The notes: generated by a model from the sequence alone, not told the origin. A stretch of 41,583 nucleotides of DNA from Pseudomonadota bacterium (GCA_015486505.1 WFRP01000125.1:1-41583), one strand, 5' to 3'; shown: positions 5,164 to 30,396, counted from the stretch's first letter. A program made the numbers and translations.

Positions 5164-5400
5164 CTCATGCGGGAACCAACTCCCGCAACCCAAACAGGGC
5201 TTTGTGGCCCGCAAATAAGTACTCTTATCAGAACATTTTCTTGTTTTTTCAAACCGAAAATAACCTGTAAGGTACTAATGCGGGAACAAACCCGCAACCC
5301 AAACAGGGCTTTGTGGCCCGCAAATAAGTACTCTTATCAGAACATTTTCTGATTATTAAATCTTGTTTTTTAGTGCAGAAAATAACCTGTAAGGTACTAA
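5164..5400 (+). repeat. repeat family A, head-to-tail dimer (units 5168-5278 and 5279-5400)
   Basis: TGCGGGAAC...CAAATAAGTACTCTTATCAGAACATTTTCT...AAAATAACCTGTAAGGTACTAA twice, sharing one CTAA at 5275-5278. Confidence 0.95.
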
Positions 5401-5445
5401 AAAACCGGGCCCCTCTAAAGTTATTCAGAGGGGCCCGGTTTCTTT
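5401..5445. terminator. bidirectional intrinsic terminator
   Basis: AAAACCGGGCCCCTCT-loop-AGAGGGGCCCGGTTTCTTT between convergent genes. Confidence 0.85.
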
Positions 5446-5484
5446 GATTCAGTGTAGAGTTTTAAAATTAACTCTCGGCGTTTT

Positions 5485-5934
5485 CTAGACAATCATCTGG
5501 GCAACGGCTTTGCCGTAATCCTGACAGGATTTGATCATTTCCGGATCATCGCTTTGCAATTTACTTTCCAAGCCGTTAAAAGAGCCCAGATTAACCAGCC
5601 TCATTTTCAGCACAAATTCCATAGTGTCCGCCAGAACCTTGGGCGCATCACCGGAATGTGTATATGAGCCAAAAGCACCCGCCGCTTTGCCGCTGAGCCC
5701 GGCTTTTTCCGCCAGGAAGAGGAAGGTTTTGAAATTCTGAGTCATTTCCCGATGATAGGTCGGACAACCAAAAATATAGCCGTCATAACCGGCGAGATCC
5801 TCTTCTGATTTAATTTGACTTACCTTTTTCAACTCGGCTTCAGCACCGGCAAAACGCACGCCTTCAGCAACAAACTGGGCCATTTTTTCGGTATTACCAG
5901 TACGACTGAAATAAACAATCAAGACCTTTGCCAT
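5485..5934 (-). CDS. flavodoxin family protein
   Basis: IVYFSRTGNTEKMA FMN-binding loop, IFGCPTY, GAFGSY; ATG 5934 follows a GGAG RBS. Confidence 0.88.
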   Translation of the reverse strand: MAKVLIVYFSRTGNTEKMAQFVAEGVRFAGAEAELKKVSQIKSEEDLAGYDGYIFGCPTYHREMTQNFKTFLFLAEKAGLSGKAAGAFGSYTHSGDAPKVLADTMEFVLKMRLVNLGSFNGLESKLQSDDPEMIKSCQDYGKAVAQMIV

Positions 5935-6102
5935 AATCCATTCTCCGTTCTTGTCCAAAGTTAAAAATATCAATAACCGGACTATACCACCTGGAAACTA
6001 ATATTACAATACTTTTTTAATTCAATTAGTTGTTTTTTATCCGCGCGCATTAAAAATTAAAGATATATTATATTTCTTAAATCTCACACAATGTTTTTAA
6101 AA

Positions 6103-6131
6103 TTAAAAAGGGCGCAAAAAATGCGCCCCTT
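6103..6131 (-). terminator. intrinsic terminator after asd
   Basis: minus strand GGGGCGCA-TTTT-TTGCGCCC followed by TTTTT. Confidence 0.75.
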
Positions 6132-6167
6132 GAAAACCAACGTTCGGGGAAACCCTGCTCTAAGATT

Positions 6168-7193
6168 CTACAGATATTCGCGAATCAGGATTTCGGCAAT
6201 CTGCACCGCGTTCAGGGCCGCGCCTTTGCGGATATTGTCGGCAACAACCCAGAGATTGATGCCGTTGGCAATTGATTCATCTTCACGAATCCGGCCGACC
6301 AGAGTCGCATCCTGACCGGCGGCTTCAACCGCCAGAGGATAGCGGTTCTCGGCCAGATCATCAACCAATTCGACCCCCGGCGCCCGCGCCATCAGTTCAC
6401 GCACTTCGTCAACCGTGATTTTCTCATCGGTTTCAATATTGACCGATTCGGAATGGCCGTAGAAAACCGGCACCCGCACTGCGGTCGCCGTCACCCCGAT
6501 GCCGTCATCGGCAAAGATCTTTTTGGTCTCGCGCACCATCTTCATCTCTTCTTTTGAATAGCCGTTCTCAAGAAAGACATCGATATGCGGCAGACAGTTG
6601 AAAGCTATCTGATGCGGATAGACGTTAACCGGAAGTTCGGATTCCTGATTAAAGAGGGCAAGAACCTGTTTTTCAAGTTCATCAATCGCTTTCTTGCCGC
6701 TGCCGGAGACCGCCTGATAGGTTGAAACCACGATCCGGCGAATCCCGACTTCATCGTAAATCGGCTTTAACGCCACCACCATCTGAATCGTTGAACAGTT
6801 GGGATTGGCAATAATCCCGCGCTTTTTATAGTCGGCAATCGCCCCGGGATTTACCTCGGGCACGACCAGCGGCACATCTTCTTCCATGCGAAAGGCATTG
6901 GTATTGTCAATCACCACCGCCCCGCTGGCGGCGGCAATCGGCGCGAAAACTTCACTGATTGAACCGCCGGCGGAAAAAAGGGCAATATCAACCCCGGCAA
7001 AAGAGTCCTCGGTCAACTCCGCAACGGCATACTCTTTACCTTTAAATTCATAGGTTTTGCCGACCGAGCGGGCCGAAGCCAGAAGTCTCAACTCGGCCAC
7101 CGGAAAACCCCGGGCTGCAAGCGTGGCAATCATCTCGTTACCAACCGCGCCGGTCGCCCCGACGACAGCGACACTGTATCCTGCTGATTTCAT
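6168..7193 (-). CDS. asd: aspartate-semialdehyde dehydrogenase
   Basis: VGATGAVG, IANPNCST, STYQAVSG.G, RVPVFYGHS and DNIRKGAALNAVQIAE motifs. Confidence 0.97.
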   Translation of the reverse strand: MKSAGYSVAVVGATGAVGNEMIATLAARGFPVAELRLLASARSVGKTYEFKGKEYAVAELTEDSFAGVDIALFSAGGSISEVFAPIAAASGAVVIDNTNAFRMEEDVPLVVPEVNPGAIADYKKRGIIANPNCSTIQMVVALKPIYDEVGIRRIVVSTYQAVSGSGKKAIDELEKQVLALFNQESELPVNVYPHQIAFNCLPHIDVFLENGYSKEEMKMVRETKKIFADDGIGVTATAVRVPVFYGHSESVNIETDEKITVDEVRELMARAPGVELVDDLAENRYPLAVEAAGQDATLVGRIREDESIANGINLWVVADNIRKGAALNAVQIAEILIREYL

Positions 7194-7232
7194 TTAAATT
7201 TCTCCCTTTAAATTTTATCTACCCAAAAAATC

Positions 7233-7304
7233 GTACCTATTCAGCCAAATTTTATCTCCCTTCTTGCAGAAAGGGGTAGGGGTAAATTTTGGCTGAATAG
7301 TTAC
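7233..7304. mobile_element. 72-bp miniature inverted-repeat element, family B (IS66-like ends)
   Basis: GTACCTATTCAGCCAAATTTTA ... TAAATTTTGGCTGAATAGTTAC terminal inverted repeats; flanks AAAAAATC / AAAAAAAT form an imperfect 8-bp duplication. Confidence 0.75.
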
Positions 7305-7311
7305 AAAAAAA

Positions 7312-7815
7312 TTATTTGTCATCCCGCAAACGTTTGCGCCAATGTGCCATAAGACCGCCGTCATCTAAAAGTTTCTGCATAAATTCCGGTACCGGCCGGG
7401 CCTGAAAGGTTTGCCCGCCGGTTAAGTCTTTAATTGTACCGGTGGCCGGATCGACATTAACCTGATGCCCGTCGGCAATCGCCGCCGCGGCTTCAGCGGA
7501 TTCCAGAATCAAAAGCCCGGTGTTAAAGGCGTTGCGATAGAAAATCCGGGCAAAGGTCGGCGCGATTACACAGGCAACACCTGACGCTTTTATCGCAATC
7601 GGGGCGTGTTCCCGGGAGGAGCCGCAACCGAAATTTTTCCCGGCCACAATGATATCCCCGGCCGCGACTTTGGCGGCAAAACCGGCATCGGCATCCTCCA
7701 TACAGTATTTTGCCAGCTCCCGCGGATCTGAAGTGTTAAGATAACGGGCCGGGATAATCGCGTCGGTATCAATATCATCACCGAACTTCCAGGCTTTTCC
7801 TTCAATATTATGCAT
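7312..7815 (-). CDS. leuD: 3-isopropylmalate dehydratase small subunit
   Basis: GDDIDTDAIIPARYL, NFGCGSSREHA, FARIFYRN. Confidence 0.95.
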   Translation of the reverse strand: MHNIEGKAWKFGDDIDTDAIIPARYLNTSDPRELAKYCMEDADAGFAAKVAAGDIIVAGKNFGCGSSREHAPIAIKASGVACVIAPTFARIFYRNAFNTGLLILESAEAAAAIADGHQVNVDPATGTIKDLTGGQTFQARPVPEFMQKLLDDGGLMAHWRKRLRDDK

Positions 7816-7855
7816 AAATTTCCCCTTAATAATCCCTTAATAATTTAAATTTCGG

Positions 7856-9124
7856 TTAGAGAATCTCTTCCGGTGTCGCAATCCGGCCTAAAACCGCACT
7901 GGCGGCGGCCACCGCCGGACTGCTGAGATAGACTTCACTTTCAGGATGACCCATGCGGCCGACAAAATTCCGGTTGGTCGTCGCCACGGCGCGCTCGCCG
8001 GCGGCAAGAATCCCCATATGCCCCCCGAGACAGGGGCCGCAGGTCGGCGGTGAAATCAGGGCTTCGGCATCGAGAAAAATATCGGTCAGCCCCTCTTTAA
8101 TCATCTGCCGGTAAACCTCCTGCGTGCCGGGAATAATCATAAGCCGGACAAACCTAGCCGCTTTTTTCCCTTTCAGCAGTTTTGCCGCCAAGCGGAAATC
8201 CTCGATCCGGCCGTTGGTACAGGAGCCGATTACAACCTGATCGATCGCGATATTATCGGCGGCCGCCTGGTCGACGGTACGGGTTTTATCCGGCAGCGGC
8301 GGATAGGAGACCTGGGGCCTGAGTTTACTCACGTCAATTTCAATCGTGCGACAATAGTTCGCATCGGGATCACTGGCGAAAACCGTATAATCCCGCTGGG
8401 CCCGGGGCCTGACATAATCTAAAGTTATCTCATCCGGGGCGATAATCCCGTTTTTGGCCCCGGCTTCAATTGCCATATTCGCCATCGACATACGCCCGTA
8501 CATCGGTAGCGCGGCAATCGTTTCGCCGGTCATCTCCAGCGCCTGATAAAGCGCCCCGTCAACCTTGAGCAAACCGATGGTATGCAAAATCAAATCCTTA
8601 CCCTCAACCCAGGCCGGCAACTCGCCGTGATAAACCACCTTGATTGTCTCCGGGACCTTGAACCAGACCTTGCCGGTCGCCATCGCGGCGGCAAGATCGG
8701 TACTTCCGACCCCGGTCGCAAAAGCCCCTAAAGCCCCATAGGTACAGGTATGCGAATCGGCGCCGATAATCAGATCCCCCGGCCCCACCAGACCCTGCTC
8801 CGGCAAAAGAACGTGTTCGATGCCGACCCGGCCGATTTCAAAATAGTTTTTGAGCTCCTGAGCTTGAGCGAATTCACGCAGGATCTTCGCCTGTTCCGCG
8901 GATTTAATATCCTTGTTCGGGGTAAAATGATCCGGAATCAACAGAACCCTTTTTTTATCGAAAACCTTCTCGACGCCGAGTTTTTCAAACTCGGCAATCG
9001 CGATCGGGGCGGTGACATCGTTGGCCAGCGCGATATCGACATCAGCTTCAATCAGTTGTCCGGGCTCAACCTCTTTGAGACCGGCATGAAAAGCCAGTAT
9101 TTTTTCGGTTATAGTTTGTGCCAC
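7856..9124 (-). CDS. leuC: 3-isopropylmalate dehydratase large subunit
   Basis: [34 protein letters not shown]; GTG 9124 follows an AGGAGG RBS (the longer ORF start runs into a repeat). Confidence 0.95.
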
Positions 9125-9133
9125 AAAATCCTC

Positions 9134-9391
9134 CTGATGCGGGAACAAACCCCGCAGTCCCAAAAAAGTTATCGGCCCGTACCCAGAGGCAATCCGCTGG
9201 TCGCAAATAAGTGCTCTTATCAGAACATTTTCTTGTTTTAAAACAAGAAGATAACCTGTAAGGCACTAATGCGGGAACAAACCCGCAACCCAAACGGAGC
9301 CTTGCGGCCCACAAATAAGTACTCTTATCAGAACATTTTCTGATTATTAAATCTTGTTTTTTGGTACAGAAAATAACCTGTAAGGTACTAA
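9134..9391 (+). repeat. repeat family A, head-to-tail dimer (units 9138-9269 and 9270-9391)
   Basis: two units sharing CTAA at 9266-9269; final CTAA is the reverse complement of the leuA stop. Confidence 0.95.
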
Positions 9392-10920
9392 ACCGTTACC
9401 TGGGGACGGTTGCGTTTTTTGTATTCAAGTTTGTTAAGCGCGTTCATATAGGCCCTGGCGCTGGCGACGACGACACAGGTATGCGCCCCCTGCCCCATTA
9501 CCGTCAGGCCCGCTTCCTTAATCCTGACGGTAACCTCACCCAGCGCGTCCGTCCCCCCTGTAATTGATTTAACCTCATAAGTCAAGAGCCGGCTTTGGGT
9601 ATCGGTTAACCGTTTAATCGTCTTGAAAACCGCGTCAATCGCCCCGTCCCCGAATTCAGCGCCGTGAATTGTCTCACCTCCAATCTCAATCTCCAAAGTA
9701 GCGCTCGGCATCGCCACGGTGCCGCTGTTGACACTGACGAAATTAAGTTTGTAATAGTGGGGAATGCGGATGATCTCATCGGCAATCAACGCGTCGATAT
9801 CCTCGTCAAAAATCTCTTTTTTCTTATCGGCCAGTTTTTTGAACGCGACAAAGGCGGTTTCAATCTGCTCCGAATCAAGTTCGTAACCTAAATCAATAAT
9901 TTTATCCTGAAAGGCGTGGCGGCCGGAGTGTTTGCCCATAACCAGACTGTTCTGCGACAGGCCGATCGATTCCGGTGTCATAATTTCATAGGTCTCTTTA
10001 TTTTTCAAAACCCCGTCCTGATGAATCCCGGCCTCATGCGCGAAAGCATTGGCCCCGACAATCGCCTTATTGGGCTGCACCCGAATCCCGGTCACCTGGC
10101 TTACAAGCCGGCTCGCGGGATAGATCTGCTGGGTAACGATATTGGTCGTATACTTAAGATTATCGGGCCGGGTTCTTAAAGCCATCACCAGCTCTTCCAA
10201 AGATGAATTACCGGCGCGCTCGCCGATACCGTTGATCGTACACTCGACCTGCCGGGCCCCGGCCTCAATCGCGGCGATTGAATTGGCGGTTGCCAGACCG
10301 AGATCATTATGACAATGCACCGAGATCACAACCCCGTCACCACCGTTCGGAAGGCGATTTTTAATCTCATCAATCATCGAGAAATATTCGCGCGGCACCG
10401 TATAACCGACCGTATCGGGAATATTAACGGTTTTGGCCCCGGCCTGAACCACGGCCGTTAAAATCCTGACCAGAAAATCGATGTCGCTGCGGGTCGCGTC
10501 TTCGGCGGAAAATTCAACATTCGAAGTCAAAGTCGAAGCATAGCGCACCGCGGCTACCGCCTGCTCCAGCACGGCATCGGCCTCCATCTGCAATTTATGT
10601 TTCATATGAATGGGCGAGGTCGCGATAAAGGTGTGAATCCGGGGGTCGGCCCCGCCTTTCAAGGCGGCCCAGGCCCGATCGATATCCTTTTGATTGGCCC
10701 GCGCCAGCCCGGCAATCTGGCACTCTTTTATATTATCACTGACCAGTTTAACCCCGGCAAAATCGCCCTCGGAAGCGATCGGAAAACCGGCCTCAATAAC
10801 GTCGACCCCGAGTTTCTCCAACTGCCGGGCCAAGAGTAATTTTTCTTCCACATTCATACTCGCCCCGGGTGATTGTTCGCCATCCCTTAAAGTTGTATCA
10901 AAGATCGTTATCCGGTCCAT
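9388..10920 (-). CDS. leuA: 2-isopropylmalate synthase
   Basis: IFDTTLRDGEQSPG, VHCHNDLG, NGIGERAGN, HEAGIHQDG; C-terminal regulatory domain; AGGAGG RBS. Confidence 0.97.
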   Translation of the reverse strand: MDRITIFDTTLRDGEQSPGASMNVEEKLLLARQLEKLGVDVIEAGFPIASEGDFAGVKLVSDNIKECQIAGLARANQKDIDRAWAALKGGADPRIHTFIATSPIHMKHKLQMEADAVLEQAVAAVRYASTLTSNVEFSAEDATRSDIDFLVRILTAVVQAGAKTVNIPDTVGYTVPREYFSMIDEIKNRLPNGGDGVVISVHCHNDLGLATANSIAAIEAGARQVECTINGIGERAGNSSLEELVMALRTRPDNLKYTTNIVTQQIYPASRLVSQVTGIRVQPNKAIVGANAFAHEAGIHQDGVLKNKETYEIMTPESIGLSQNSLVMGKHSGRHAFQDKIIDLGYELDSEQIETAFVAFKKLADKKKEIFDEDIDALIADEIIRIPHYYKLNFVSVNSGTVAMPSATLEIEIGGETIHGAEFGDGAIDAVFKTIKRLTDTQSRLLTYEVKSITGGTDALGEVTVRIKEAGLTVMGQGAHTCVVVASARAYMNALNKLEYKKRNRPQVTV

Positions 10921-10976
10921 CTTTTCCTCCTGATTAATTATTGTTGTCTGTCTGTCTTGTAACTATTTTCAACCTT

Positions 10977-11025
10977 AAACAAAAAATCCCCCTGAATTCT
11001 GCTTCTGAACTCAGGGGGATTTGCC
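10977..11025 (-). terminator. intrinsic terminator between pssA and leuA (candidate attenuator terminator)
   Basis: transcript AAAUCCCCCUGAGUUC-AGAAGCA-GAAUUCAGGGGGAUUU followed by UUUGUUU. Confidence 0.88.
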
Positions 11026-11130
11026 TATCTTGCGAAAATTTGAAGTCTGCCTTTAGTTGCTGTCTACCGACACACTCTTCTCTTCGGCCCCTTGAGTCCG
11101 TTTTTTTAGTAGTCCGGTTAGCTGTAGCAG
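10977..11130 (-). promoter_or_regulatory. candidate leucine-responsive attenuator using the pssA 3' end as leader
   Basis: CUG CUA CAG CUA ACC GGA CUA CUA codons, then GGACUCAAGGGG complementary (11/12) to the terminator 5' arm, then terminator, then leuA. Confidence 0.55.
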
Positions 11131-11805
11131 GAATTTAACCGGCCCGGAAAATGTGTAAATCAGAGCCAAAGCAAAAAGTGAGATCTGGGGCTCGGCCGCG
11201 ATTACGATAAAAATCACCGCCATCATTACCAAAGCGATAAAAGGGGCCCGGCCGTTGAAAACCGACTCCTTAAATGCCGGATATTTGACATTGCTAACCA
11301 TTAAAAAGGCCAGAACGTAGCAGAGAGCCAGCAGAACCACATTACTTTCAATGCCGGTGGCCCCGAGATGTTCACAGATCAGAACCGTAGTTGCCGCCAT
11401 ACTCGCCGCCGCCGGAATCGGCAGGCCGTTAAAAGTGCCTTTGTCGCTGCTTTCCGCCTGGATATTGTAACGCGCCAGACGCAAGGCCCCGCAGGCGACA
11501 AAAAGAAACGCCGCCAGCCAGCCGAGGCGGCCGTATGAGGAAAGACTCCAGAGAAAGATCAACAATGCCGGCGCCACGCCGAATGAAACCAGGTCGGCCA
11601 ACGAATCAAATTCCATCCCGAAACGGCTGGTCGCGTGCATCATCCGCGCAACCTTGCCATCCAGGATATCAAAAAGATTGGCGACAACCACCGCGGTCGC
11701 TGCCAACGCGAAATCACCCTTGATCGCGGCTATAATCGCATAAAAACCACAAAAAAGATTGCCCATGGTAAAGAGATTGGGCAGCAGATATACTCCGCGT
11801 ATCAT
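11053..11805 (-). CDS. pssA: CDP-diacylglycerol--serine O-phosphatidyltransferase
   Basis: LPNLFT.GNL, FDILDGKVAR, FG.EFDSLADLVSFGVAPA, ALRLARYN, F.GLPIP. Confidence 0.96.
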   Translation of the reverse strand: MIRGVYLLPNLFTMGNLFCGFYAIIAAIKGDFALAATAVVVANLFDILDGKVARMMHATSRFGMEFDSLADLVSFGVAPALLIFLWSLSSYGRLGWLAAFLFVACGALRLARYNIQAESSDKGTFNGLPIPAAASMAATTVLICEHLGATGIESNVVLLALCYVLAFLMVSNVKYPAFKESVFNGRAPFIALVMMAVIFIVIAAEPQISLFALALIYTFSGPVKFLLQLTGLLKKRTQGAEEKSVSVDSN

Positions 11806-11888
11806 GTCGGCCTCCTTCGGGGTGCAAGTATTCGGGGTGCAAACATTAAAGATGTTAAAACCATAATTTACACCGACAAAGTTTTCCT

Positions 11889-12134
11889 GTAACTACTCAG
11901 CCGAATCCGGGGTCGGGCGCGGTTCTTCTCCGCCAGGCGTTAAGATTTCTGTTTTTCCTTACGCTCGCTGCGCCCGCCTTGCAAAACTCGCTTACGCTCA
12001 AACAGTTGCAATGCTAATGGGCTCCCGCTCGCTTCCGAAAAACAACGAAATCGTTTCCGCAACCGCTTACGAAAAGCCACCCCCGCCCCTTCCAGAAGAT
12101 GGGGGGGGGGGGTAAAATTTGGCTGAATAGTTAC
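11889..12134. mobile_element. 246-bp non-autonomous element, family B (IS66-like MITE)
   Basis: TIRs GTAACTACTCAGCC / GGCTGAATAGTTAC; perfect 8-bp flanking duplication GTTTTCCT (11881-11888, 12135-12142); second copy in reverse at 41407. Confidence 0.88.
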
Positions 12135-12150
12135 GTTTTCCTTAACATAT

Positions 12151-12276
12151 TTAGTACCTTACAGGTTATTTTCTGCACCAAAAACAAGATTTAATAATCA
12201 GAAAATGTTCTGATAAGAGTACTTATTTGCGGGTCGCAAGGCTCCGTTTGGGTTGCGGGATCTGTTCCCGCATTAG
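12151..12276 (-). repeat. repeat family A, single copy
   Basis: reverse-complement unit flanked by TTAG on both sides; one flank contains the psd stop codon. Confidence 0.95.
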
Positions 12277-12941
12277 TCAACTATTGGCAAGTATCCAATA
12301 ACAGTCTCTCCGGCTTTAACCTGCTGGCCGACGGCAACATCAATTTCGGTATCCGGCGGTAGATAAAGATCGACCCTTGAGCCGAAACGAATCAGGCCGA
12401 AACGCTCACCTTTTTCGAGGCGGTCGTCAGGTTCGACAAAACAGACAATCCGCCGGGCAATCAGACCGGCAATCTGAGTAAAGGCGATCCGGCGCTTATG
12501 ATCATCCTCAATCACAACCATATTACGCTCATTTTCTTCCGCCGCCTTGTCGAGATTGGCGGAGAAAAATTTCCCCGCTTTATAGTGGATCGCCACAACC
12601 CGGCCGGCAGCCGGTGCGCGATTGACATGAACATTAAACACCGACATAAAAATACTGACTTTAATACTCTCTTTTATCCCGGCAAGCTCCGGCCCGTCAA
12701 CCTCGGCAACCGAAAGCACCCGGCCATCCGCGGGAGAAACCACCGCCCCCTCTTTCAGCGGGACGAAACGTTCAGGATCGCGAAAAAAAGCGCCGCAGAA
12801 AACCGCCAGCACCAGGGTTAACTTCCAGAGCCAGCCCCAGCCCAGAAGAAAAAAGATAATCGTTGCCAGGCCAAAACCAATCACCCAGCGATGACCTTCC
12901 GGGTGAACTTTATCCATAATCGGTAAACTGCTGAATTTCAC
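12273..12941 (-). CDS. psd: phosphatidylserine decarboxylase proenzyme (short type)
   Basis: FFRDPER, SPADG, SIFMSVFNVHVNRAP, QIAGLIARRI and FGSRVD self-cleavage motif. Confidence 0.95.
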   Translation of the reverse strand: MKFSSLPIMDKVHPEGHRWVIGFGLATIIFFLLGWGWLWKLTLVLAVFCGAFFRDPERFVPLKEGAVVSPADGRVLSVAEVDGPELAGIKESIKVSIFMSVFNVHVNRAPAAGRVVAIHYKAGKFFSANLDKAAEENERNMVVIEDDHKRRIAFTQIAGLIARRIVCFVEPDDRLEKGERFGLIRFGSRVDLYLPPDTEIDVAVGQQVKAGETVIGYLPIVD

Positions 12942-12953
12942 TTATTACTCCCT

Positions 12954-13970
12954 TTAGTTTTTTGCCTTATCGACCAACTTGTTTTTACCAATCCAACTCA
13001 TCATCGAACGGAGTTTCGCACCGACCGCTTCGATCTCGTGCTCGGCCCCATTCCGGGTCAAAGCGTTGAAAACCGGACGGTTGGCCTGATTTTCCAGAAT
13101 CCATTCCCGGGCAAACGAACCATCCTGAATCTCGGCCAGGATCTCGGCCATAGCTTCACGGCTCTCTTCATTGATAACCCGCGGCCCCCGGGTCAAGTCC
13201 CCGAACTGGGCCGTATTGCTGATTGAATAGCGCATATTACTGATTCCGCCCTCATAAATCAAGTCAACAATTAATTTCAATTCATGCAGGCATTCAAAAT
13301 AAGCCATCTCCGGAGCATAACCGGCATCGACCAGGGTTTCAAAACCGGCGCGAATCAACTCGGTCACGCCGCCGCAGAGCACCGCCTGCTCACCGAAAAG
13401 ATCGGTTTCGGTCTCTTCCCGGAAAGTGGTTTCAATAATCCCGGCCCGGCCGCCGCCGATGCCGCAGGCATAGGCCATCGCCAGTGCCCGGGTATCTCCG
13501 GCCGGGTCCTGATGCACGGCAATCAAAGTGGGAACCCCCATCCCCTGAGTATATTCATGCCGCACCAGATGGCCGGGGCCTTTCGGGGCCGCCATAAAAA
13601 CATTGACGCCCGCAGGCGGCGTAATCTGGCCGTAATGAATATTAAAGCCATGGGCGAAAGCCAGATAATCACCATCTTCAAGATTGGGGGCGATCTCTTC
13701 ATTATAAAGTTTAGCCTGGAGCTCATCGGGAACCAGAATCATTATTACCTGGGCCTGACGCACGGCTTCGGCGGTTTCAAACAGCGGCAGGCCACCGGTT
13801 TCCGCCTTCTGCCACGAAGGGCCGCCGCGACGCAGGCCAACGATCACATCAAAACCACTCTCTTTCAGGTTATGCGCATGGGCGTGACCCTGGCTGCCGT
13901 AACCGATAACCGCAATCTTTTTCCCCTGCAAAACCGCCGGATTGGAATCTTTTTCATAATAAAGCTGCAT
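12954..13970 (-). CDS. ilvC: ketol-acid reductoisomerase
   Basis: [42 protein letters not shown]; ATG 13970 follows an AGGGG RBS. Confidence 0.97.
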
Positions 13971-14008: not shown

Positions 14009-14219
14009 CTTCCCAGTAACGCCTTGTAACCACTTGAAATTATAAAATTTTTATCTGTGCCTATCCGTGTCCATCTCCATCTATGGTTCAACAAAAAAAT
14101 AGAAACCACAGATGAACGCAGATTAACACAGATTCAGTTCCTCTCACGTTACTTGTATATATGTGGCCGTGATAGCGGTCTGGGATGCTTCCAAGTAACG
14201 CCTTGCAAACACCTGAAAT
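14009..14219. repeat. 32-bp imperfect direct repeat pair (14009-14040, 14188-14219)
   Basis: CTTCCCAGTAACGCCTTGTAACCACTTGAAAT vs CTTCCAAGTAACGCCTTGCAAACACCTGAAAT, 28/32 identical. Confidence 0.8.
14053..14133. repeat. repeat family C: inverted arrays of a 10-bp unit (degenerate copy)
   Basis: ATCTGTGCCT ATCCGTGTCC ... ATCTATGGTT / AACCACAGAT GAACGCAGAT TAACACAGAT. Confidence 0.8.
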
Positions 14220-14351
14220 CAATCAAGTTTCACGAATTATCTAACATAGGTACAATCTGTCGAAACCTTTTTTGACCTCTTTTTTCTCACGTCTCCGCGC
14301 CTTTTGCGCGAGATAAAAGTAATTTTTGCGCAGAAGCTTTTAACCACGTCG

Positions 14352-16650: not shown

Positions 16651-17697
16651 TCAAGGCAGCAATGAAACCGTTGTAAGCCCGGCTCTTTCCGGCAGGCCCA
16701 GCATTAGATTCATATTCTGCACCGCCTGCCCGGCGGCCCCTTTAACCAGGTTGTCGATTGCCGAAAATAAAATCAGGCTCTGTTTATCCGCGGCCAGCAC
16801 ATAGCCGATATCGCAATAGTTGCTGCCCCGAACCCCGTTTAAGGTCGGCAGGACACCGGCCGGCAGCAGCCGGACAAAGGTTTCCGCGGCATAAGCCTGA
16901 TGCAGAGCGTCTTCGATTTCAGCCGCAGTAACCTCCCGGGACAACGGCAGATAGATTGAAGAGAGAATCCCCCGGTTAACCGGCAGCAGATGCGGTACAA
17001 ACAGAAGTCGTGGAGCGCTGCCGGCAACCCGTTCAAGTTGTTCGACCATCTCCGGCTGATGCCGGTGGTTACCGGCTTTATAGGGTTTAAAGCTCTCATT
17101 AACTTCACAATAAAGTGAGCCCAGATTAAGGCCGCGGCCCGCCCCGCTGGTACCGGATTTGGCATCAATGACAATGGTTGCCTGACGTTCAATCAGATTA
17201 AGCGGCAAAATCGGCGCCAGCGGCAGAATGACACTGGTGGGATAGCAGCCGGGATTGCCGACAATCCGGGCTTGAGGAATTTCTGCGCGGAAAAGCTCCG
17301 GTAAACCATAAACCGCTTTTCCCAGCAATTCCGGCCGGGTATGCGGTTGATACCAGCTCTCGTAGAGCTTAAGATCGCGAAAACGGTAATCGGCACTTAA
17401 ATCAACCACTTTCTTCCCGGCCTGATAAAGTTCGGCCACAACCTCGATTGCGGCTTTATGCGGCAGCGCCGTAAAAACCAGATCGGCCATATCTGCAATC
17501 TTATCGACCTGATTATCAATAAATTTAAGCTCGACTATCTCCCGTAATGATGGGAAAAGCTCGGTTACGGCTACTCCGATATGCTGGCGCGAGGTAACCG
17601 CGGTCAACTCAACCCCGGGATGGCCCGCCAGAATTCGCATCAGCTCAACCCCGGTGTAACCACTGGCACCAATAATCGCTACTTTAGTTTTTGCCAC
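16651..17697 (-). CDS. argC: N-acetyl-gamma-glutamyl-phosphate reductase
   Basis: IIGASGYTG, DLSADYR, NPGCYPT, SGTSGAGR, IDNLVKGAAGQAVQ. Confidence 0.97.
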   Translation of the reverse strand: MAKTKVAIIGASGYTGVELMRILAGHPGVELTAVTSRQHIGVAVTELFPSLREIVELKFIDNQVDKIADMADLVFTALPHKAAIEVVAELYQAGKKVVDLSADYRFRDLKLYESWYQPHTRPELLGKAVYGLPELFRAEIPQARIVGNPGCYPTSVILPLAPILPLNLIERQATIVIDAKSGTSGAGRGLNLGSLYCEVNESFKPYKAGNHRHQPEMVEQLERVAGSAPRLLFVPHLLPVNRGILSSIYLPLSREVTAAEIEDALHQAYAAETFVRLLPAGVLPTLNGVRGSNYCDIGYVLAADKQSLILFSAIDNLVKGAAGQAVQNMNLMLGLPERAGLTTVSLLP

Positions 17698-17729
17698 AAT
17701 CTTCTCCTTATCCCACCTTCCCGGAAACG

Positions 17730-17760
17730 AAAAAAAGGAGACCGTTTTCGCGGCCTCCCT
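17730..17760 (-). terminator. intrinsic terminator after rpsI
   Basis: transcript GGAGGCCG-CGAAAA-CGGUCUCC followed by a U7 tract. Confidence 0.8.
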
Positions 17761-17792
17761 CTATTGTAAGTCTTTCTTTAACCAGATTCGAT

Positions 17793-18185
17793 TTAACGTT
17801 TCGAGAACTGGTAGCGAGCCCGGGCACCACGTTGACCGTATTTTTTACGCTCCTTAATTCGCGCATCACGGGCAAGAAAGCCAGCCTTTTTTAGGACGCC
17901 GCGGAGTTCGGGATCATACTCCTGCAGGGCTTTACTGATACCATGTTTAACCGCACCGGCCTGACCGGAAACCCCGCCGCCGATAACCTTGATCATAAAA
18001 TCAAACTTATTATTACATTCAGCTACGGCCAGCGGCTGAAAAACCATCTCCCGGGCAATATCCATAGTAAAATAGTCTTCAACGCTGCGGCCGTTAACCT
18101 TAATTTCGCCACTGCCCTCACTCAACCAAACCTTGGCGATAGCTGATTTTCTTTTTCCGGTCGCGTAAAACCTTGTCGCACTCAT
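17793..18185 (-). CDS. rpsI: 30S ribosomal protein S9
   Basis: YATGKRK, GGGVSGQAGA, ERKKYG...AR...QFSKR. Confidence 0.98.
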   Translation of the reverse strand: MSATRFYATGKRKSAIAKVWLSEGSGEIKVNGRSVEDYFTMDIAREMVFQPLAVAECNNKFDFMIKVIGGGVSGQAGAVKHGISKALQEYDPELRGVLKKAGFLARDARIKERKKYGQRGARARYQFSKR

Positions 18186-18277
18186 ATTAAAATCCTAAAT
18201 ATTAAAATCTTGAATTATTCTGACTGTTTATCAACTGATTATTAGCGTTAATGCCGCAGTTGAGTCTTTAATGTACC

Positions 18278-18706
18278 TTAAAGCTCTACGGCAACCGGGT
18301 TCTGGGCCTGATGGGCGTGTTCGGCCCCGGCATAAATCTTAAGTTTCTGAATCATTTTCCGACCCAGTTTATTCTTCGGCAACATACCTTTTACCGCGTT
18401 TTTGATAAGTTCAGTCGGATTCTTCTCCAGAAGTTCAGCCGCGGTGATGCCTTTGATACCTCCGGCATAACCAGTATAATGGTAATAGACCTTATCTTTA
18501 AGTTTGTTGCCGGTCAAACGGATATCAGCCGCGTTAACCACCACAACATAATCGCCGGTATCAACATGCGGGGTGTAAATCGCTTTGTTCTTGCCCCGCA
18601 GAATTGTCGCTATTTCACTAGCCAGACGTCCAAGAACCCGCCCCTGAGCATCAAACAAATGCCATTTCTGCTCAAATTCACCAGGTTTTGCCACATAAGT
18701 CTTCAT
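18278..18706 (-). CDS. rplM: 50S ribosomal protein L13
   Basis: [37 protein letters not shown]; start set at ATG 18706. Confidence 0.98.
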
Positions 18707-18826
18707 CGGTTTTCTATTCTCCAGAAAAAACAGCCGGTCGCGTGATTCAATCACCTGCAACCGGTAAACTACCCAAATCCCCAAAGCCCGTCTTGAAAAA
18801 TCAGGGCAACAATTTTGAAAGGGCAC

Positions 18827-18855
18827 TTTTTAATACAGCCGCCACGCATTGTCAA
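18827..18855 (-). promoter_or_regulatory. putative sigma70 promoter of rplM-rpsI
   Basis: TTGACA-17 bp-TAAAAA followed by a GC-rich discriminator (GTGCCC). Confidence 0.55.
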
Positions 18856-18892
18856 GTTCTTTTTACCGGTTAGAGACATTTCGTTTAATGAA

Positions 18893-20095
18893 TCAATCTG
18901 TCAAAAAATCACGGCGGCGTTGCGCGAACAGGCTTAGAACATAATCGATATCTTTCCGGGTTAAATCGGCGCTTACGGTTACCCGTAGCCGGGACTGGCC
19001 GGAGGCGACGGTCGGCGGCCGGATTCCCTGAATAAAAACCCCCTGCTCCAAAAACCAGGCGCTGATTTCCATTGTTTTATCGGGGTCGCCGACAACCACC
19101 GGAATAATCGGGGTCGGATCATCACGGACACTGACACCGAGACGTTTAAGGCCGTCGCGAAAATAGCCGGTCAGCGACCTTAAATGCCGCACCGTTTCCG
19201 GTTCGTCAAGCAAAAGGTCAATAGCGGCCATCGAGGCCCCTAAAGCGGCCGGCGGCAGAGCGGTTGAATAGATGAAACTGCGAGCTTTATTTATAAGGTA
19301 ATCGACATATTGCGGCGCTCCGGCAACGTAAGCGCCGCAGCTTCCCAGGGCTTTACCCAGGGTCCCCATCTGCATATCAATATCCTTGTAATCCAGCCCG
19401 AAATGCTCAGCTGAGCCGCGGCCGCCGGGGCCGAGCACGCCGGTGGCATGGGCATCATCAACCACCAGGATCGCGTCATATTTTCGGGCCAGCGCGGCAA
19501 GCTCCGGTAAAGGGGCGATATCGCCGTCCATACTGAAAACGCTGTCTGTCACAATCAGCCGACGCCGGAATCCGGCGGCACTTCCCTTGAGCAGATTTTC
19601 AAGATGCGCAACCTCACAATGCCGATAAATCTCCAATCGGGCCCGGCTCAAACGACAGCCGTCAACGATACTGGCATGATTCAAGGCATCACTGTAGATC
19701 ACATCTCCGGCCCCGACCAGGGTGGTCAGAAGGGCCAGGTTGGCAACATAACCACTATTAAACAGTAAGGCTTTGGGAGTTTTCTTGAAAGCGGCAATTT
19801 TCTCCTCAAGTTCAACGTGCAGGGCCATGGTTCCGGAAATCAGACGCGAAGCCCCGGCGGAACAGCCGTAGCGTTCAGCGGCCGCAAGCGCCTGGACCTT
19901 GAGCTTTGAATGATTGGCAAAACCAAGATAATTATTGGAACAGAGCAGAAGAATCGGCTGTCCCTGCAAGCTGGTATGGGCCTGCTGCGGACCATCAACA
20001 GTCCGCAGAAAACGCAGCCGCCCCTGTTCTTTAAGCTGCTCAAGTTCAAACTCAAGTTCAGAAAGCAATGATTTGTCCGCAACCACTTCAGTCAC
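18893..20095 (-). CDS. bioF: 8-amino-7-oxononanoate synthase
   Basis: SNNYLG, GASRL, FNSGYVAN, NHASI, SMDGD, DDAHATG, GTLGKALG, IRPPTV; next to bioB. Confidence 0.92.
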   Translation of the reverse strand: MTEVVADKSLLSELEFELEQLKEQGRLRFLRTVDGPQQAHTSLQGQPILLLCSNNYLGFANHSKLKVQALAAAERYGCSAGASRLISGTMALHVELEEKIAAFKKTPKALLFNSGYVANLALLTTLVGAGDVIYSDALNHASIVDGCRLSRARLEIYRHCEVAHLENLLKGSAAGFRRRLIVTDSVFSMDGDIAPLPELAALARKYDAILVVDDAHATGVLGPGGRGSAEHFGLDYKDIDMQMGTLGKALGSCGAYVAGAPQYVDYLINKARSFIYSTALPPAALGASMAAIDLLLDEPETVRHLRSLTGYFRDGLKRLGVSVRDDPTPIIPVVVGDPDKTMEISAWFLEQGVFIQGIRPPTVASGQSRLRVTVSADLTRKDIDYVLSLFAQRRRDFLTD

Positions 20096-20097
20096 CT

Positions 20098-21156
20098 TTA
20101 ATCTCCGGCCGCTTCAAGCTCAAACGCGCGCCAGTCCTTAAGCAAACGCTGATCATCCGACCACTGGCGGCCGCTGGTGGTCAGATAATCACCAATCATT
20201 AAACCATTGGCGCCGGCGGCAAAAATAAACGACTGAAAATCCCCGAAAGTCCGCTGTCGCCCGCCGCAGATCCGGATATCAACTGTGGGACAGACAAACC
20301 TGAACATCGCCATCGTTAAAAGCGCCACAAACGGGGTCAGGCCCGGTTCCTCGGCCAACGGAGTGCCGCTGACCGGGACGAGAAAATTTAGGGGGATTGA
20401 GTCGACTTTAAGCTCCCGCAGCGTCAAAGCCAACTCCACCCGCTGGGCCCAACTCTCGCCCAAGCCCATAATCCCACCGCTGCAGACGTAAAGACCGACA
20501 TCTTTCGCGGTTTTGACCGTCGCGACCGCCCGCTCATAATCGTGCGTGGTACAGATATTTTTAAAAAAGGAGCGGGAAGTTTCGAGATTATGGTGGTAGT
20601 GTTTAAGGCCGGCGTCACGATAACGGGCCGCCGTCGCCTCATCAAGAAATCCCAGGGACGCGCAGGGCCCGACCCCGGTGGCGCTGATTTCTTGCAGCAT
20701 CGCGATAATCTTTTCCTGTTCGGCCGAACAATCGACTGCCGTACCGCTGGTGACAATCGAAAAATTATCCACAGTACAGGCCGCCGCGGCCCGGGCCCGT
20801 TCGGCCAACTCCGCAACAGTTATCAGCGGAAAAGTCTTAACCCCGGTATCATAGGAGATCGATTGCGCGCAATAAGCGCAATCTTCCGGACAGCGGCCGG
20901 ATTTGGCATTGGTTATCGCGCAAAGCGCGATTTTCGAACCGCAAAAATGGCGCCGCAGCCGGTTACTTAAAGGTAATAACGAAAAAATATCCGGCCCGGC
21001 CAACTCCCCCATTGCCAAAGCCAGTGTTTTTTCAATACCTGCTCCCGTCGCCGATATTTCCGGCAACAACACTTCCAACTCGGCAATAATTGCCGGCTTT
21101 TCTTTCTCCGCTTTCCCGGATTTACAGGATTTTTGAACTAAACACATATTCCGCAA
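20098..21156 (-). CDS. bioB: biotin synthase
   Basis: NAKSGRCPEDCAYCAQS radical-SAM motif, YHHNLETS, CSGGIMGLGE, SIPLNFL, GDYLTT.G; TTG start with AAGGA RBS (ATG 21147 is an alternative). Confidence 0.93.
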   Translation of the reverse strand: MRNMCLVQKSCKSGKAEKEKPAIIAELEVLLPEISATGAGIEKTLALAMGELAGPDIFSLLPLSNRLRRHFCGSKIALCAITNAKSGRCPEDCAYCAQSISYDTGVKTFPLITVAELAERARAAAACTVDNFSIVTSGTAVDCSAEQEKIIAMLQEISATGVGPCASLGFLDEATAARYRDAGLKHYHHNLETSRSFFKNICTTHDYERAVATVKTAKDVGLYVCSGGIMGLGESWAQRVELALTLRELKVDSIPLNFLVPVSGTPLAEEPGLTPFVALLTMAMFRFVCPTVDIRICGGRQRTFGDFQSFIFAAGANGLMIGDYLTTSGRQWSDDQRLLKDWRAFELEAAGD

Positions 21157-22646: not shown

Positions 22647-22772
22647 GGGGTTTCGGAACGGAGCCGGAGATTTAATTCCGCTTAACGGACGAACTTATAC
22701 TGAACCGTCTATCACGCCGAGTTGACTTTGCCAAGAAAATAATTACATAAACACCCTGATAACGAATCATAA

Positions 22773-22911
22773 CCAATGCGGGAACAGATCCCGCAACCCA
22801 AAAGAAAGTTATTGGCCCGCACCCAGGGGCACTTCCGCTGGTCGCAAATAAGTACTCTTATCAGAACATTTTCTTGTTTTTTCAAACCGAAAATAACCTG
22901 TAAGGTACTAA
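22773..22911 (+). repeat. repeat family A, single long copy
   Basis: CCAA-TGCGGGAACAGATCCCGCA...CCTGTAAGGTA-CTAA. Confidence 0.95.
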
Positions 22912-22957
22912 TAAAGCACATTAACCATCAAACCGATACTTACGGATTAAATTACTT

Positions 22958-23491: not shown

Positions 23492-23536
23492 TTTACGTCG
23501 AAATGGCTCCCGAAAAGCATTACGGGTTTTGTCAGA

Positions 23537-23665
23537 CTAATTCGGGAACAAATTCCCGCAACCCAAAAGAAAGTTTTCGGCCCGCAAATAAGTACTCTTA
23601 TCAGAACATTTTCTGATTATTAAATCTTGTTTTTTTGGTGCAGAAAATAACCTGTAAGGTACTAA
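23537..23665 (+). repeat. repeat family A, single copy
   Basis: flanked by CTAA on both sides (23537-23540, 23662-23665). Confidence 0.95.
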
Positions 23666-23680
23666 GATACGAGAAGACCA

Positions 23681-24670: not shown

Positions 24671-24673
24671 ACT

Positions 24674-25927: not shown

Positions 25928-25943
25928 TTGCAGCCTGATTACC

Positions 25944-26744: not shown

Positions 26745-26747
26745 GCA

Positions 26748-28109: not shown

Positions 28110-28287
28110 AACTCGCATAAAAGTAATCACGACAATAAAAAAACTTACAGGATAACTCGCAAATGTACTCGCAATAGAACAAATATAACCAACTAACCCA
28201 GGTTCCCGGAGCGCCCTAACCACAGAAAATATTGGAAGATTTTAATTAACCGGCTGCTTTTCAAAGGCATCACATTGACAAAACTAT

Positions 28288-28440
28288 CTAATGCGGAAAC
28301 AAATTCCCGCACCCCAAAAGAAAGTTTTCGGCCCGTACCCCAAGGGCAATCCGCTGGTCGCAGATAAGTACTCTTATCAGAACATTTTCTGATTATCAAA
28401 TCTGGTTTTTTGGTGCAGAAAATAACCTGTAAGGTACTAA
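28288..28440 (+). repeat. repeat family A, single long copy
   Basis: flanked by CTAA on both sides (28288-28291, 28437-28440). Confidence 0.95.
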
Positions 28441-28570
28441 ATATATGAAATTAGCTTGATTTTTTATATTAAAGGAGTTATGTATAGTGCATCAGACACT
28501 GTTTTAAAATGTTCTGGTATTAATTAAGCACTTGTTTAACCTTCAACAATCACCGAAAAAGGAGTCCCAA

Positions 28571-29122
28571 ATGAAAGCAGCAAAAGCAATTCTGGCGTTG
28601 GCTTTGTTCGCAAGCTTGATGTTTGTGTTCACAAGTTGCACATGCAAACCTGATCTCGAAGAAGAGAAAGTCACGCAACCGACGACAATGACAACCCCGG
28701 CCGCAGCAACCTCCTCCGAGGCGGTTAAACCGGCAGCGACCTCTACCGGCGTAGTTACCGTTGGCGACCGGGTGGTTGATATCGGCGACCATATTTTCCC
28801 GATCTATTTTGATTTCGACAAAGCCGCTTTACGCAGTGACGCCCGCGAAACTCTGGGGAAACTGGCGCAGTGGATGAAAGTCAACCCCGAGGTCAAACTG
28901 CGCATCGACGGCCACTGCGATGAACGCGGCTCAAACGAGTATAACCTGGCCTTAGGTGAAACCCGGGCCGCCAGCGCGCAGAAATATTTGGTCTATCTGG
29001 GAATCTCTCCGGAACGTTTTGAGATATTAAGTTTCGGTGAAGAAAAACCGGTCTGCAGCGAAGCCACGGAAAGCTGCTGGAGCCGATGCCGGCGGGATGA
29101 TTTTACAATTACCGCCAAATAA
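28571..29122 (+). CDS. pal: peptidoglycan-associated lipoprotein
   Basis: lipobox FTSC; IYFDFDK, GHCDERGSNEYNLALGE.RA, SFGEEKP; ATG 28571 follows AAGGAG. Confidence 0.95.
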   Translation: MKAAKAILALALFASLMFVFTSCTCKPDLEEEKVTQPTTMTTPAAATSSEAVKPAATSTGVVTVGDRVVDIGDHIFPIYFDFDKAALRSDARETLGKLAQWMKVNPEVKLRIDGHCDERGSNEYNLALGETRAASAQKYLVYLGISPERFEILSFGEEKPVCSEATESCWSRCRRDDFTITAK

Positions 29123-29133
29123 TGAAACTTTCA

Positions 29134-29272
29134 TTAGTACCTTACAGGTTATTTTCGGTTTGAAAAAACAAGAAAATGTTCTGATAAGAGTACTTATTTG
29201 CGACCAGCGGAAGTGCCCCTGGGTACGGGCCGAAAAGGCCTGTTTGGGTTGCGGGATTTGTTCCCGCATTAG
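29134..29272 (-). repeat. repeat family A, single long copy
   Basis: reverse-complement unit flanked by TTAG on both sides. Confidence 0.95.
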
Positions 29273-29371
29273 AATAATAGACTGCATCTGTAAACAAGAC
29301 CGGCGGGAAGCCAGACAGCTGACCGACAAGGTTCAGCTTGGCTCCCGCCGGCGGTGGTTTGAATTTTGATC

Positions 29372-30190
29372 ATGAACGATTCGTATAAGTTAAAACTGAT
29401 CGCCATTCTGGTCATTGCATCGGCAATGATTTGCGGCTGTGCCGGTACTAATCAACAGCGCGAGGAGCAGGCAATCTACCACCGCCTTAACGCAATTGAA
29501 CAACAACAGGCAATCTTGCAGCGCGAGAGCGCCAGTGCCCAGAAAAAACTCAACGCCGACACCAACATCCGGCTTGACAACCTCGAAAGAGAGTTAAAAC
29601 TGCTCAGCGAGTCGGTTGAGGATGCCCTGGCCCGGCCCGAAGAAGTAAAATCAATTGACAAGTTTGAATTTGAAGGAACCATTGCCAACCTGGAGAAACG
29701 AATCCAGCAACTTGAGCAGGGAACAGCCACGGCTGCCCCAAATTCAGCCAAACCTAAAAACAACGTCCGGACTCCCCCGAGGCCGGCCCGCCCCGCCGCC
29801 AAAAAAGCCCCAGGCGCCCGCGAAAAGGCCCTCTATGACGATGCCTACAGCACTTTTAAGCGCGGCAATTTCAAAACGGCAAAAAATAAATTCGCAAAGT
29901 TTATTAAAACTTTCCCCAACAGCGGCTACAAGGTTAATTCTCAATTCTGGATCGGCGAATGCTATTATAAGATTGGAGATTACGCTGAAGCAATCATCAG
30001 GTATGATGAAATCATAGCCCAAGCCCCCCACCACCAGAAAGCGGCCAGCGCCCTCCTGAAACAGGGTTTTGCTTTCCTGAAACTCGGGGATACGACTGAC
30101 GGCAAACTAATTCTTGATAAAGTAGTCACAAACTACCCGAAAAGTGACCAGGCTGAAATTGCGCGGCGCAAACTCAAAACCATAAAATAG
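29372..30190 (+). CDS. cpoB: Tol-Pal system protein CpoB/YbgF
   Basis: lipobox ICGC, coiled coil, TPR region F..FPNS....SQFWIGE, ALLKQG, YPKS..A; after pal. Confidence 0.9.
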   Translation: MNDSYKLKLIAILVIASAMICGCAGTNQQREEQAIYHRLNAIEQQQAILQRESASAQKKLNADTNIRLDNLERELKLLSESVEDALARPEEVKSIDKFEFEGTIANLEKRIQQLEQGTATAAPNSAKPKNNVRTPPRPARPAAKKAPGAREKALYDDAYSTFKRGNFKTAKNKFAKFIKTFPNSGYKVNSQFWIGECYYKIGDYAEAIIRYDEIIAQAPHHQKAASALLKQGFAFLKLGDTTDGKLILDKVVTNYPKSDQAEIARRKLKTIK

Positions 30191-30244
30191 CCGCAGCCGC
30201 GACATCGATGGCACAGGTTGTGCAGTTGTGCTAATATTAACATT

Positions 30245-30396
30245 TTCGTACCTTACAGGTTATTTTCTGCACCAAAAAACAAGATTTAATAGTCAGAAAA
30301 TGTTCTGATAAGAGTACTTATTTGCGACCAGCGGAAGTGCCCCTGGGTACGGGCCAAAAAAGCCCGATTGGGTTGCGGGATCTGTTCCCGCGTTAG
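30245..30396 (-). repeat. repeat family A, single long copy
   Basis: reverse-complement unit, flanks TTCG / TTAG. Confidence 0.93.

Follow-up and report, generated by a model that had tools for sequence, protein, structure and literature searches.

A CTAA-bounded, hairpin-bearing intergenic repeat family, probably a non-autonomous mobile element, in a Pseudomonadota chromosome segment

How did ten copies of one short non-coding unit come to lie between unrelated housekeeping genes within some forty kilobases of bacterial chromosome, and to what kind of element do they belong? The stretch in question is WFRP01000125.1:1-41583 of the Pseudomonadota assembly GCA_015486505.1, which was analysed at its full length of 41,583 nt and is called the window below. 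The unit, here termed family A, had been described in an initial annotation as a modular, CTAA-bounded intergenic repeat without conventional terminal inverted repeats, and a non-autonomous mobile element moved by an enzyme encoded elsewhere in the genome had been suggested. The ten units at eight loci are indeed present where that annotation placed them: the 30-mer core gives ten matches at up to three mismatches (eight exact, two with one mismatch), against 0.00 expected from 100 shuffles. With both bounding tetranucleotides counted, the copies measure 115-153 bp; together they account for 28% of the non-coding DNA in the window (1333 of 4763 bases), at a density of one copy per ~4 kb. Family A is real, very abundant and apparently undescribed in Rfam and the searched literature (ISfinder and Dfam lie outside that scope), and we consider it very probable that it is, or was, mobile and non-autonomous.

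Architecture of the repeat

Each unit runs through a short GC-rich hairpin (hp1), a variable linker, an optional 25-nt insert found in five of the ten window copies, an invariant core, an apex that occurs in three variants in the window, a 3' motif and a closing CTAA, which is the modular layout that the initial annotation had proposed. Copy A8 (28288-28440, plus strand), the longest form, illustrates the arrangement. Its hp1 (28293-28310) begins 1 nt past the left CTAA, the insert (28336-28360), which has a small hairpin of its own, is followed by a 24-nt arm (28367-28390) containing a 20-nt stretch that is invariant in all ten window copies, and the variable apex (28391-28416) separates this arm from a second one (28417-28438), which ends with the CT of the right CTAA. 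The annotation had correctly listed the 30-mer core and the 3' motif but had overlooked that both pair with each other: together they form the arms of a single long imperfect hairpin, whose loop is made up by the apex variants.

Single copies fold into the long hairpin more stably than shuffled sequences, both as RNA (z -2.4 to -5.6) and as DNA (z about -3.8 to -9.3). Aligning 28 copies gives 692 pair cells, of which 94.5% hold standard pairs, compared with 36-46% when the partners are slid. Of the 25 pairs, just one, located at the foot of the stem, covaries substantially (A-U in 18 rows, G-C in 9), and a second pair changes in a single row; the signal for the long hairpin is mostly sequence identity, not covariation. 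Pairing in the hairpin is interrupted at constant places, by two single-base bulges on the 5' arm and by a 3x3 internal loop; 26 of the 28 aligned copies retain these interruptions. The 3x3 loop could close through G-U pairs on the reverse strand.

The two ends of the unit do not resemble each other. At the left, hp1 is a GC-rich hairpin of 16-18 nt, and its 5' arm has two possible partners, the adjacent CCCGCA or a second CCCGCA just before the core. At the right, the long hairpin is AT-rich and extends over ~70-85 nt, sharing 2 nt with the right CTAA. Taken alone, it consists of two inverted arms of ~24 nt with a spacer, and every unit carries in addition a left module of 50-75 nt, on one side only, and has direct ends. 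In the two copies examined for terminal inverted repeats joining both ends, none was found, the inverted repeats being internal only (hp1, its alternative partner and the arms of the long hairpin). This bears out the earlier statement that the two ends are not inverted repeats of each other.

A scan of genome contigs with the 20-nt core detected at least 24 further loci from at least 14 assemblies, which are denoted by L numbers where they need to be told apart. In the window the 20-mer never varies and the arms differ by 0-4%, compared with 0.36 for the linker and 0.25 for the apex. Among the listed copies, the mean pairwise difference rises from 0.08 in CGCAAATAAGT beside the core and 0.14 in the right arm to 0.31 in hp1 and 0.45 in both linker and apex. 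The 20-nt core was itself the scan pattern, so its invariance in the loci from other genomes holds by construction; the window copies, CGCAAATAAGT and the right arm are free of that selection.

The copies within the window mix these modules. Besides A8, which lies between tolB and pal, three single copies have CTAA on both sides, as had been noted: A5 (12151-12276, minus strand), A7 (23537-23665, plus strand), without insert and with the long apex, between carD and a PIN/TRAM gene, and A9 (29134-29272, minus strand), with insert and short apex, between pal and a cpoB-like TPR gene and antisense to both. A6 (22773-22911, plus strand, CCAA...CTAA), between the divergent pilD-like gene and carD, combines the insert with the short apex, and A10 (30245-30396, minus strand, CTAA...CGAA), between the TPR gene and pilM and antisense, combines it with the long apex. 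The remaining four copies, all on the plus strand, form two head-to-tail pairs with one CTAA common to each pair. A1 (5164-5278, CTCA...CTAA) has no insert and a short apex, and its right CTAA is also the left CTAA of A2 (5275-5400, CTAA...CTAA), which has no insert and a long apex. A3 (9134-9269, CTGA...CTAA) carries the 25-nt insert, a short palindromic apex and a GTGC/GCAC stem variant and is followed by A4 (9266-9391, CTAA...CTAA), again without insert and with a long apex, and lacking the stem variant of A3.

A covariance model, R1, listed eight of the ten window copies (A2 with 134 bits); A1 and A3, which overlap their neighbours by 4 nt, were presumably dropped as overlapping matches. 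In the window and the listed loci, the R1 scan found neither solo long hairpins nor additional window copies. It gave 36.8 bits for a truncated copy at L004 959-1034 (minus strand), which comprises the left module and the first core bases (to CTCTTA) and ends at the stop codon of an aminotransferase gene, and one doubtful weak match in L003. In two copies from different assemblies, L007 (1972-2147) and L020 (1944-2100), the right arm complements the left perfectly. Both also contain an additional 3' module (AAAGCGnTTTCAGACCGCT...GCGGCCACA) that is absent from the other copies, and L007 is without the stretch between the two CCCGC partners. L007 is part of the 28-copy alignment and L020 lies outside it.

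Boundaries, spread and evidence for mobility

Similarity between copies ends exactly at the bounding tetranucleotides. Thirty complete copies are available, the ten in the window and 20 among the matches listed from other genomes. CTAA stands at the left end of 23 of them and at the right end of 27, and 21 have the same tetranucleotide at both ends. The flanks are unequal in the other nine, none of which has the same variant on both sides; variants are found seven times at the left and three times at the right, a difference that is not significant (p=0.34). CTAA is not palindromic, and the polarity of the unit relative to it is the same in 30 of 30 copies. The base 3' of the right CTAA is mostly A; otherwise the flanks are conserved no further than these four bases.

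The sites themselves can touch the ends of genes. In nine of the 30 copies a boundary tetranucleotide carries the stop codon of the neighbouring open reading frame (ORF), six times at the left end in sense and three times at the right end on the other strand. The earlier description of all units as intergenic therefore needs a qualification in the window: the units do lie between genes, but the left CTAA of A5 contains the psd stop codon (TAA, 12273-12275, minus strand) and the right CTAA of A4 contains that of leuA (TAG, 9388-9390, minus strand). The left tetranucleotide of A3 adjoins an AGGAGG ribosome-binding site before leuC (minus strand). Judging from the sequence, removal of A3 and A4 together with one tetranucleotide would set the leuA stop codon on the leuC Shine-Dalgarno sequence, as at an ordinary operon joint. 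Five CTAA/TTAG sites in the window overlap stop codons, two of them occupied, and 19 other intergenic sites are free. We considered special targeting of stop codons and discarded it, as the association is explicable by a target that contains TAA/TAG and by the loss of insertions in coding DNA. CTAA/TTAG is scarce in the window (117 sites versus 271±17 in shuffles). Masking the elements and applying a second-order Markov model gives an observed/expected ratio of 0.71, which places CTAA/TTAG fourth of 136 behind CTAG, CATG and GGAC. This depletion may reflect avoidance of certain codons or stops, or avoidance of the target of the element.

The 24 matches listed from other genomes comprise 20 complete copies and four that are cut by a contig end 0-20 nt away, with the same architecture and bounds in all. 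The loci are labelled as Deltaproteobacteria, Thermodesulfobacteriota, Desulfobacca sp., Ca. Tharpella aukensis, "Pseudomonadota" and "bacterium", and Ca. Tharpella stands under a candidate phylum of its own in NCBI. The 79 ORFs flanking the listed loci are ordinary metabolic and housekeeping genes, different at every locus. Copies cluster with others of their subtype from different genomes, not with those of the same genome: the copies at L024 and L021 are 93% identical, and those at L022, which has the optional insert, and A10 are 87% identical.

One locus offers a comparison of a filled with an empty site. L024 is orthologous to window positions 16778-20418 at 72-78% identity and carries a copy (1944-2056) in the spacer between rplM and an aminotransferase gene, where the window (18708-18892) has none. 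The length gap between both spacers is about one unit, and the flanking DNA can be aligned to the left and right of the L024 copy. The tandem pairs provide a further line of evidence, since both are made of unlike subtypes that have one CTAA in common, which indicates separate insertions, not tandem duplication; a second insertion at the CTAA that ends a resident copy would produce exactly this arrangement. Mobility, past or present, is thus suggested by the same unit lying between unrelated genes, by the presence/absence difference between L024 and the window, by the contig breaks, by the unlike tandem pairs and by the grouping of subtypes across genomes.

The window is core chromosome, with cobS, leuA-leuCD, asd, psd-pssA, ilvC, ilvN, ilvB, rpsI-rplM, carD, ispDF, tolB-pal, the TPR gene, pilM, pilN, pilO, pilP and pilQ. 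Copies lie inside likely operons in both orientations (leuA-leuC, psd-pssA, tolB-pal). Relative to transcription, the 30 complete copies are distributed as 11 sense, 10 antisense, four between convergent genes, one between divergent genes and four unscored. Measured on the plus strand, GC skew stays below zero in all 5-kb intervals (-0.065 to -0.137) regardless of gene strand, and this single sign places the window within one replichore, with a C-rich plus strand.

Further features of this DNA were observed next to family A or apart from it. Directly after A2, between convergent genes, a strong GC-rich palindrome (AACCGGGCCCCTCT...AGAGGGGCCCGGTT) at 5401-5450 is probably a bidirectional terminator outside the repeat. 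A second short repeat family (GGGGTAAA-TTTGGCTGAATAGTTAC-like) forms an inverted pair between leuD and asd (7233-7258, minus strand; 7279-7304, plus strand), and a third copy (12109-12134, plus strand) adjoins A5; a similar CTGAATAGTTAC string is found in L002. A 10-nt-periodic motif (CCACAGATGAACACAGAT...) occurs as an inverted pair near the end of the window (41323-41380) and singly upstream of the ilv genes (14096-14133); a like inverted pair lies at L002 480-529, a Ca. Tharpella locus, and the motif is conserved across genomes. The ilvC-ilvN spacer contains a 43-nt direct repeat (14009-14051 and 14188-14230, 79% identity), possibly a leader or regulatory region. At L016, an N-terminal HsdM domain and a C-terminal N6-methylase piece are encoded by separate ORFs (1215-1658 and 2157-3098) ~500 bp apart, which may represent a split or interrupted restriction-modification methylase gene.

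Possible routes of movement

Our working reading, which we put forward tentatively and would not yet call probable, is that family A is a non-autonomous element without terminal inverted repeats, moved as single-stranded DNA by an HUH-type enzyme. It is motivated by the absence of terminal inverted repeats, a hairpin at each end, a fixed tetranucleotide that precedes the left end on its 5' side and closes the right one, the strict polarity and the head-to-tail pairs. The unit would then be a left module on one side only, hp1 plus linker, followed by the long, imperfect hairpin with its constant bulges, and a Y1-type HUH transposase acting in trans would read the folded hairpins. Cleavage would occur 3' of CTAA at both ends, releasing a circle in which GGTACTAA abuts TGCGGG, and this circle would be pasted 3' of another CTAA. 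The left CTAA would be the host target and the right CTAA would belong to the element, so that the junction of the excised circle would be the one seen in the tandem pairs. Host sequence would still meet the same four bases on either side, which would let stop codons and ribosome-binding sites survive insertion, and the end of a resident copy would offer a new CTAA target, giving rise to head-to-tail pairs. We infer the single-strand movement, the cut sites and the enzyme class from this arrangement of the ends.

Part of this scheme has a parallel in IS200/IS605 elements. As described in excerpts of PMC5027513, insertion of these elements places the left end 3' of a given tetra- or pentanucleotide, in IS608 TTAC, which is needed again for the next move; this left flank is host DNA, with no target duplication, and the active strand lies preferentially on the lagging-strand template. 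The derived PATE elements, which are mobilized by the Y1 HUH transposase TnpA through 'peel and paste', resemble family A in having no terminal inverted repeats, hairpins at the ends, a tetranucleotide at both ends and a size of ~100-150 bp, and they may be arranged head to tail. With respect to their rule of a fixed host tetranucleotide (PMC5027513, in excerpt), CTAA stands at 23 left and 27 right ends of 30, a pattern that is indistinguishable here from a 4-bp duplication.

A number of observations weigh against the HUH route, and some against recent or purely selfish movement of any kind. The palindromes of IS608 are subterminal, imperfect and similar to each other, with cleavage sites some distance away (PMC3201880, in part), whereas the end hairpins of family A are unlike each other and abut CTAA. 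There is no clear replication-strand bias in what is a small sample (seven plus and three minus copies, p=0.34; 5:3 when counted as loci, p=0.73), and TnpA was not found in the window or flank ORFs. More generally, a Pfam search found no transposase, HUH or recombinase domain in the 37 ORFs of the window or the 79 flank ORFs, and 19 of these without assignment (18 flank, one window) yielded no mobility domain when re-scanned at E up to 0.01. At the empty site, the corresponding position in the window reads as a CCAA-like tetranucleotide, and the spacer is too diverged for an exact reading of a single CTAA. No pair of window copies is more than 95% alike, so nothing indicates very recent movement, and conservation is mosaic, with nearly constant arms beside a linker that differs by 36% and an apex that differs by 25%. 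Finally, in the one orthologous filled pair, L005 1252-1376 and L013 1954-2078 (92% identical over 1555 bp), six of seven differences fall in the 24 nt of CTAAY and hp1 and one in the other 101 nt (Fisher p=1.7e-4), and hp1 is intact in neither copy. Compared with 18 differences in 306 nt of flank, the single difference in those 101 nt gives p=0.054. This single pair hints that the long hairpin is constrained once inserted, which is not expected of a purely selfish element. The annotation had named HUH-mobilized elements as one of its leads; this lead stands as the best remaining one, although two of the features that define the class are lacking. Its overall reading is partly supported: the family is non-coding, free of terminal inverted repeats and hairpin-bearing, and the evidence leans toward mobility, but a transposase domain is absent from all 116 window and flank ORFs.

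The same observations raise the question of whether the unit is maintained by the host. In that case it would be a structural module, for example a protein-binding site or an RNA-processing or stability hairpin at operon joints, in which the conserved 31-nt left arm and the long hairpin persist by selection or gene conversion and mobility is ancient or secondary. The arms, far more conserved than linker, apex and hp1, fit this explanation, as do the faster decay of hp1 than of the long hairpin between L005 and L013, the constancy of the 3x3 loop and the two bulges, and the possibility of closing the loop with G-U pairs on the reverse strand. Copies that are 93% (L024-L021) or 87% (L022-A10) alike and group by subtype, where L024 and window housekeeping DNA share only 72-78%, point the same way. 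Yet the random orientation to transcription makes a strand-specific RNA role unlikely, and the core invariance in other genomes follows from how the sample was selected. In positions 5000-13000, which hold five copies, a terminator and promoter scan found no promoter-like site inside a copy and four weak 5-pair terminator-like matches at the linker (three minus, one plus), with none over hp1 or the long hairpin. An intrinsic terminator, in the sense of a GC-rich stem followed by a T run, was accordingly discarded for these five copies. The exact CTAA bounds, the unlike tandem pairs and the contig breaks are also left unexplained, and we regard host maintenance as the main cause as unlikely. 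A host function for the long hairpin may nevertheless exist alongside mobility. Multicopy small RNA genes or cis-regulatory RNA leaders would account for the stable conserved fold and the one covarying pair. This is hardly credible, however, given that Rfam offers no credible match, that no promoter or terminator signal accompanies the unit in the five copies scanned, that units lie in both orientations inside operons and that beyond the single pair of 25 with substantial covariation the remainder is sequence identity.

Other transposition mechanisms would read the two CTAA differently. YTAR targets are typical of IS5 and IS701, and the annotation had taken them as another lead. On that reading, family A would be a cut-and-paste MITE (miniature inverted-repeat transposable element) of a DDE transposon, with both CTAA as a 4-bp target duplication; the identical flanking tetranucleotides in 21 of 30 complete copies and the single CYAA-like site at the one empty locus are compatible with it. 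A DDE transposase, however, would have no terminal inverted repeats to bind, and a symmetric transpososome would not impose one polarity on 30 of 30 copies. The nine copies with unequal flanks, never with one variant on both sides, also speak against a duplication, although later mutation could explain them. These points weaken the IS5/IS701 lead, and we consider it quite improbable. Alternatively, CTAA could be the crossover core of a site-specific or RNA-guided recombinase of which family A is a passenger. The lack of terminal inverted repeats and the short identical core at both junctions would suit an IS110-like enzyme, a lead likewise named in the annotation, but enzymes of this type recognise longer specific sequences and stay at low copy number, while the flanks of family A share only four bases, apart from the preference for A, and ten copies occupy unrelated sites in 41.6 kb. 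The chance of this explanation is in our judgement very slight.

Comparison with known repeat systems

Catalogued families and published descriptions gave no match. Rfam 15 at its gathering score has no match in the whole window, which answers the Rfam part of the check proposed in the initial annotation, and at E up to 10 over 28250-30430 (three copies) only chance-level hits appeared (best E 0.31; Yfr10 at E 4.9, snoRNA models). BLAST of one copy found no match in plasmids and, in phages, 41-nt matches (E=8e-3) inside Staphylococcus phage genes that we take as chance. In the literature searched, the motif strings of family A were not found, and work on repeats of Desulfobacter/Desulfobacterota, on CTAA-target MITEs and on RAYT/REPIN in Deltaproteobacteria contained no description of it. 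The accessible portions of PMC6006769 and PMC10969869 contain no relevant mention of CTAA or of these taxa. In the genome of Desulfobacterium autotrophicum, 2357 exact repeats of at least 50 bp were counted and, in the sections seen of that report, not characterised (PMC2702500).

If confirmed, family A would be among the densest small repeats reported in a bacterial chromosome. Its hosts form an environmentally important group of sulfate-reducer-like bacteria, whose genomes are known to be repeat-rich with the repeats uncharacterised, and the matches at contig ends indicate that it breaks assemblies of metagenome-assembled genomes. Its ends fit no defined transposon family, and its enzyme could add a new mode of end recognition in single-stranded DNA. 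With one hairpin arm strongly conserved among genomes, the family also lends itself to testing whether elements of this kind acquire a use for their host.

Apart from PATE, the closest comparison is with the REP and REPIN-RAYT systems. REP units are palindromes of 20-40 bp tagged at one end by GTAG or CGTC (PMC3733652, in part), and a REPIN is a symmetric pair of REPs (PMC3337134, in part). Family A is likewise abundant, intergenic and hairpin-forming, it has a short tag 5' of its GC-rich hp1, and its two inverted arms with a spacer recall a REPIN. In 23 of 30 copies, however, its tag reads CTAA followed by T or C, no copy has GTAG or CGTC there, and at 115-153 bp the unit exceeds a REP in size. 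In contrast to a REPIN, it is asymmetric, with the left module on one side only and with direct instead of inverted ends. ERIC and Correia elements share the size of 100-150 bp, a long imperfect hairpin, optional internal segments and positions inside operons in both orientations, but their terminal inverted repeats span the whole unit, whereas the hairpin of family A covers only the 3' two-thirds and its ends are not inverted. The attC sites of integrons provide a structural analogy only: they too form imperfect hairpins, in which conserved unpaired bases could mark the reactive strand, but they have inverted core sites and follow cassettes in one orientation, unlike the direct CTAA ends of family A, which occurs in both orientations among housekeeping genes. 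Membership among classical DDE MITEs was rejected because terminal inverted repeats are absent, the polarity is single and no copy with unequal flanks has one variant on both sides.

The persistence of family A across genomes invites one further comparison. As far as the available parts of the sources go, REPIN-RAYT systems are abundant families that persist across related lineages with a single distant mobiliser gene (PMC3337134, 10.1101/2022.05.22.493013). In these systems the RAYT gene is single-copy and has repeats on either side. Family A might be a long-lived replicator of a similar kind with a new end architecture, spanning groups that are labelled as different phyla (Thermodesulfobacteriota and Ca. 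Tharpellota). CTAA abutting two unlike hairpins would then imply an undescribed HUH-type or other single-strand transposase, and the long hairpin would be kept by host selection at operon joints. We regard this bolder proposal as a doubtful one. Family A lacks a defining feature of PATE, REP and the classical MITE alike and departs from the symmetric layout of a REPIN, and it is best filed among the small non-autonomous hairpin-ended mobile elements.

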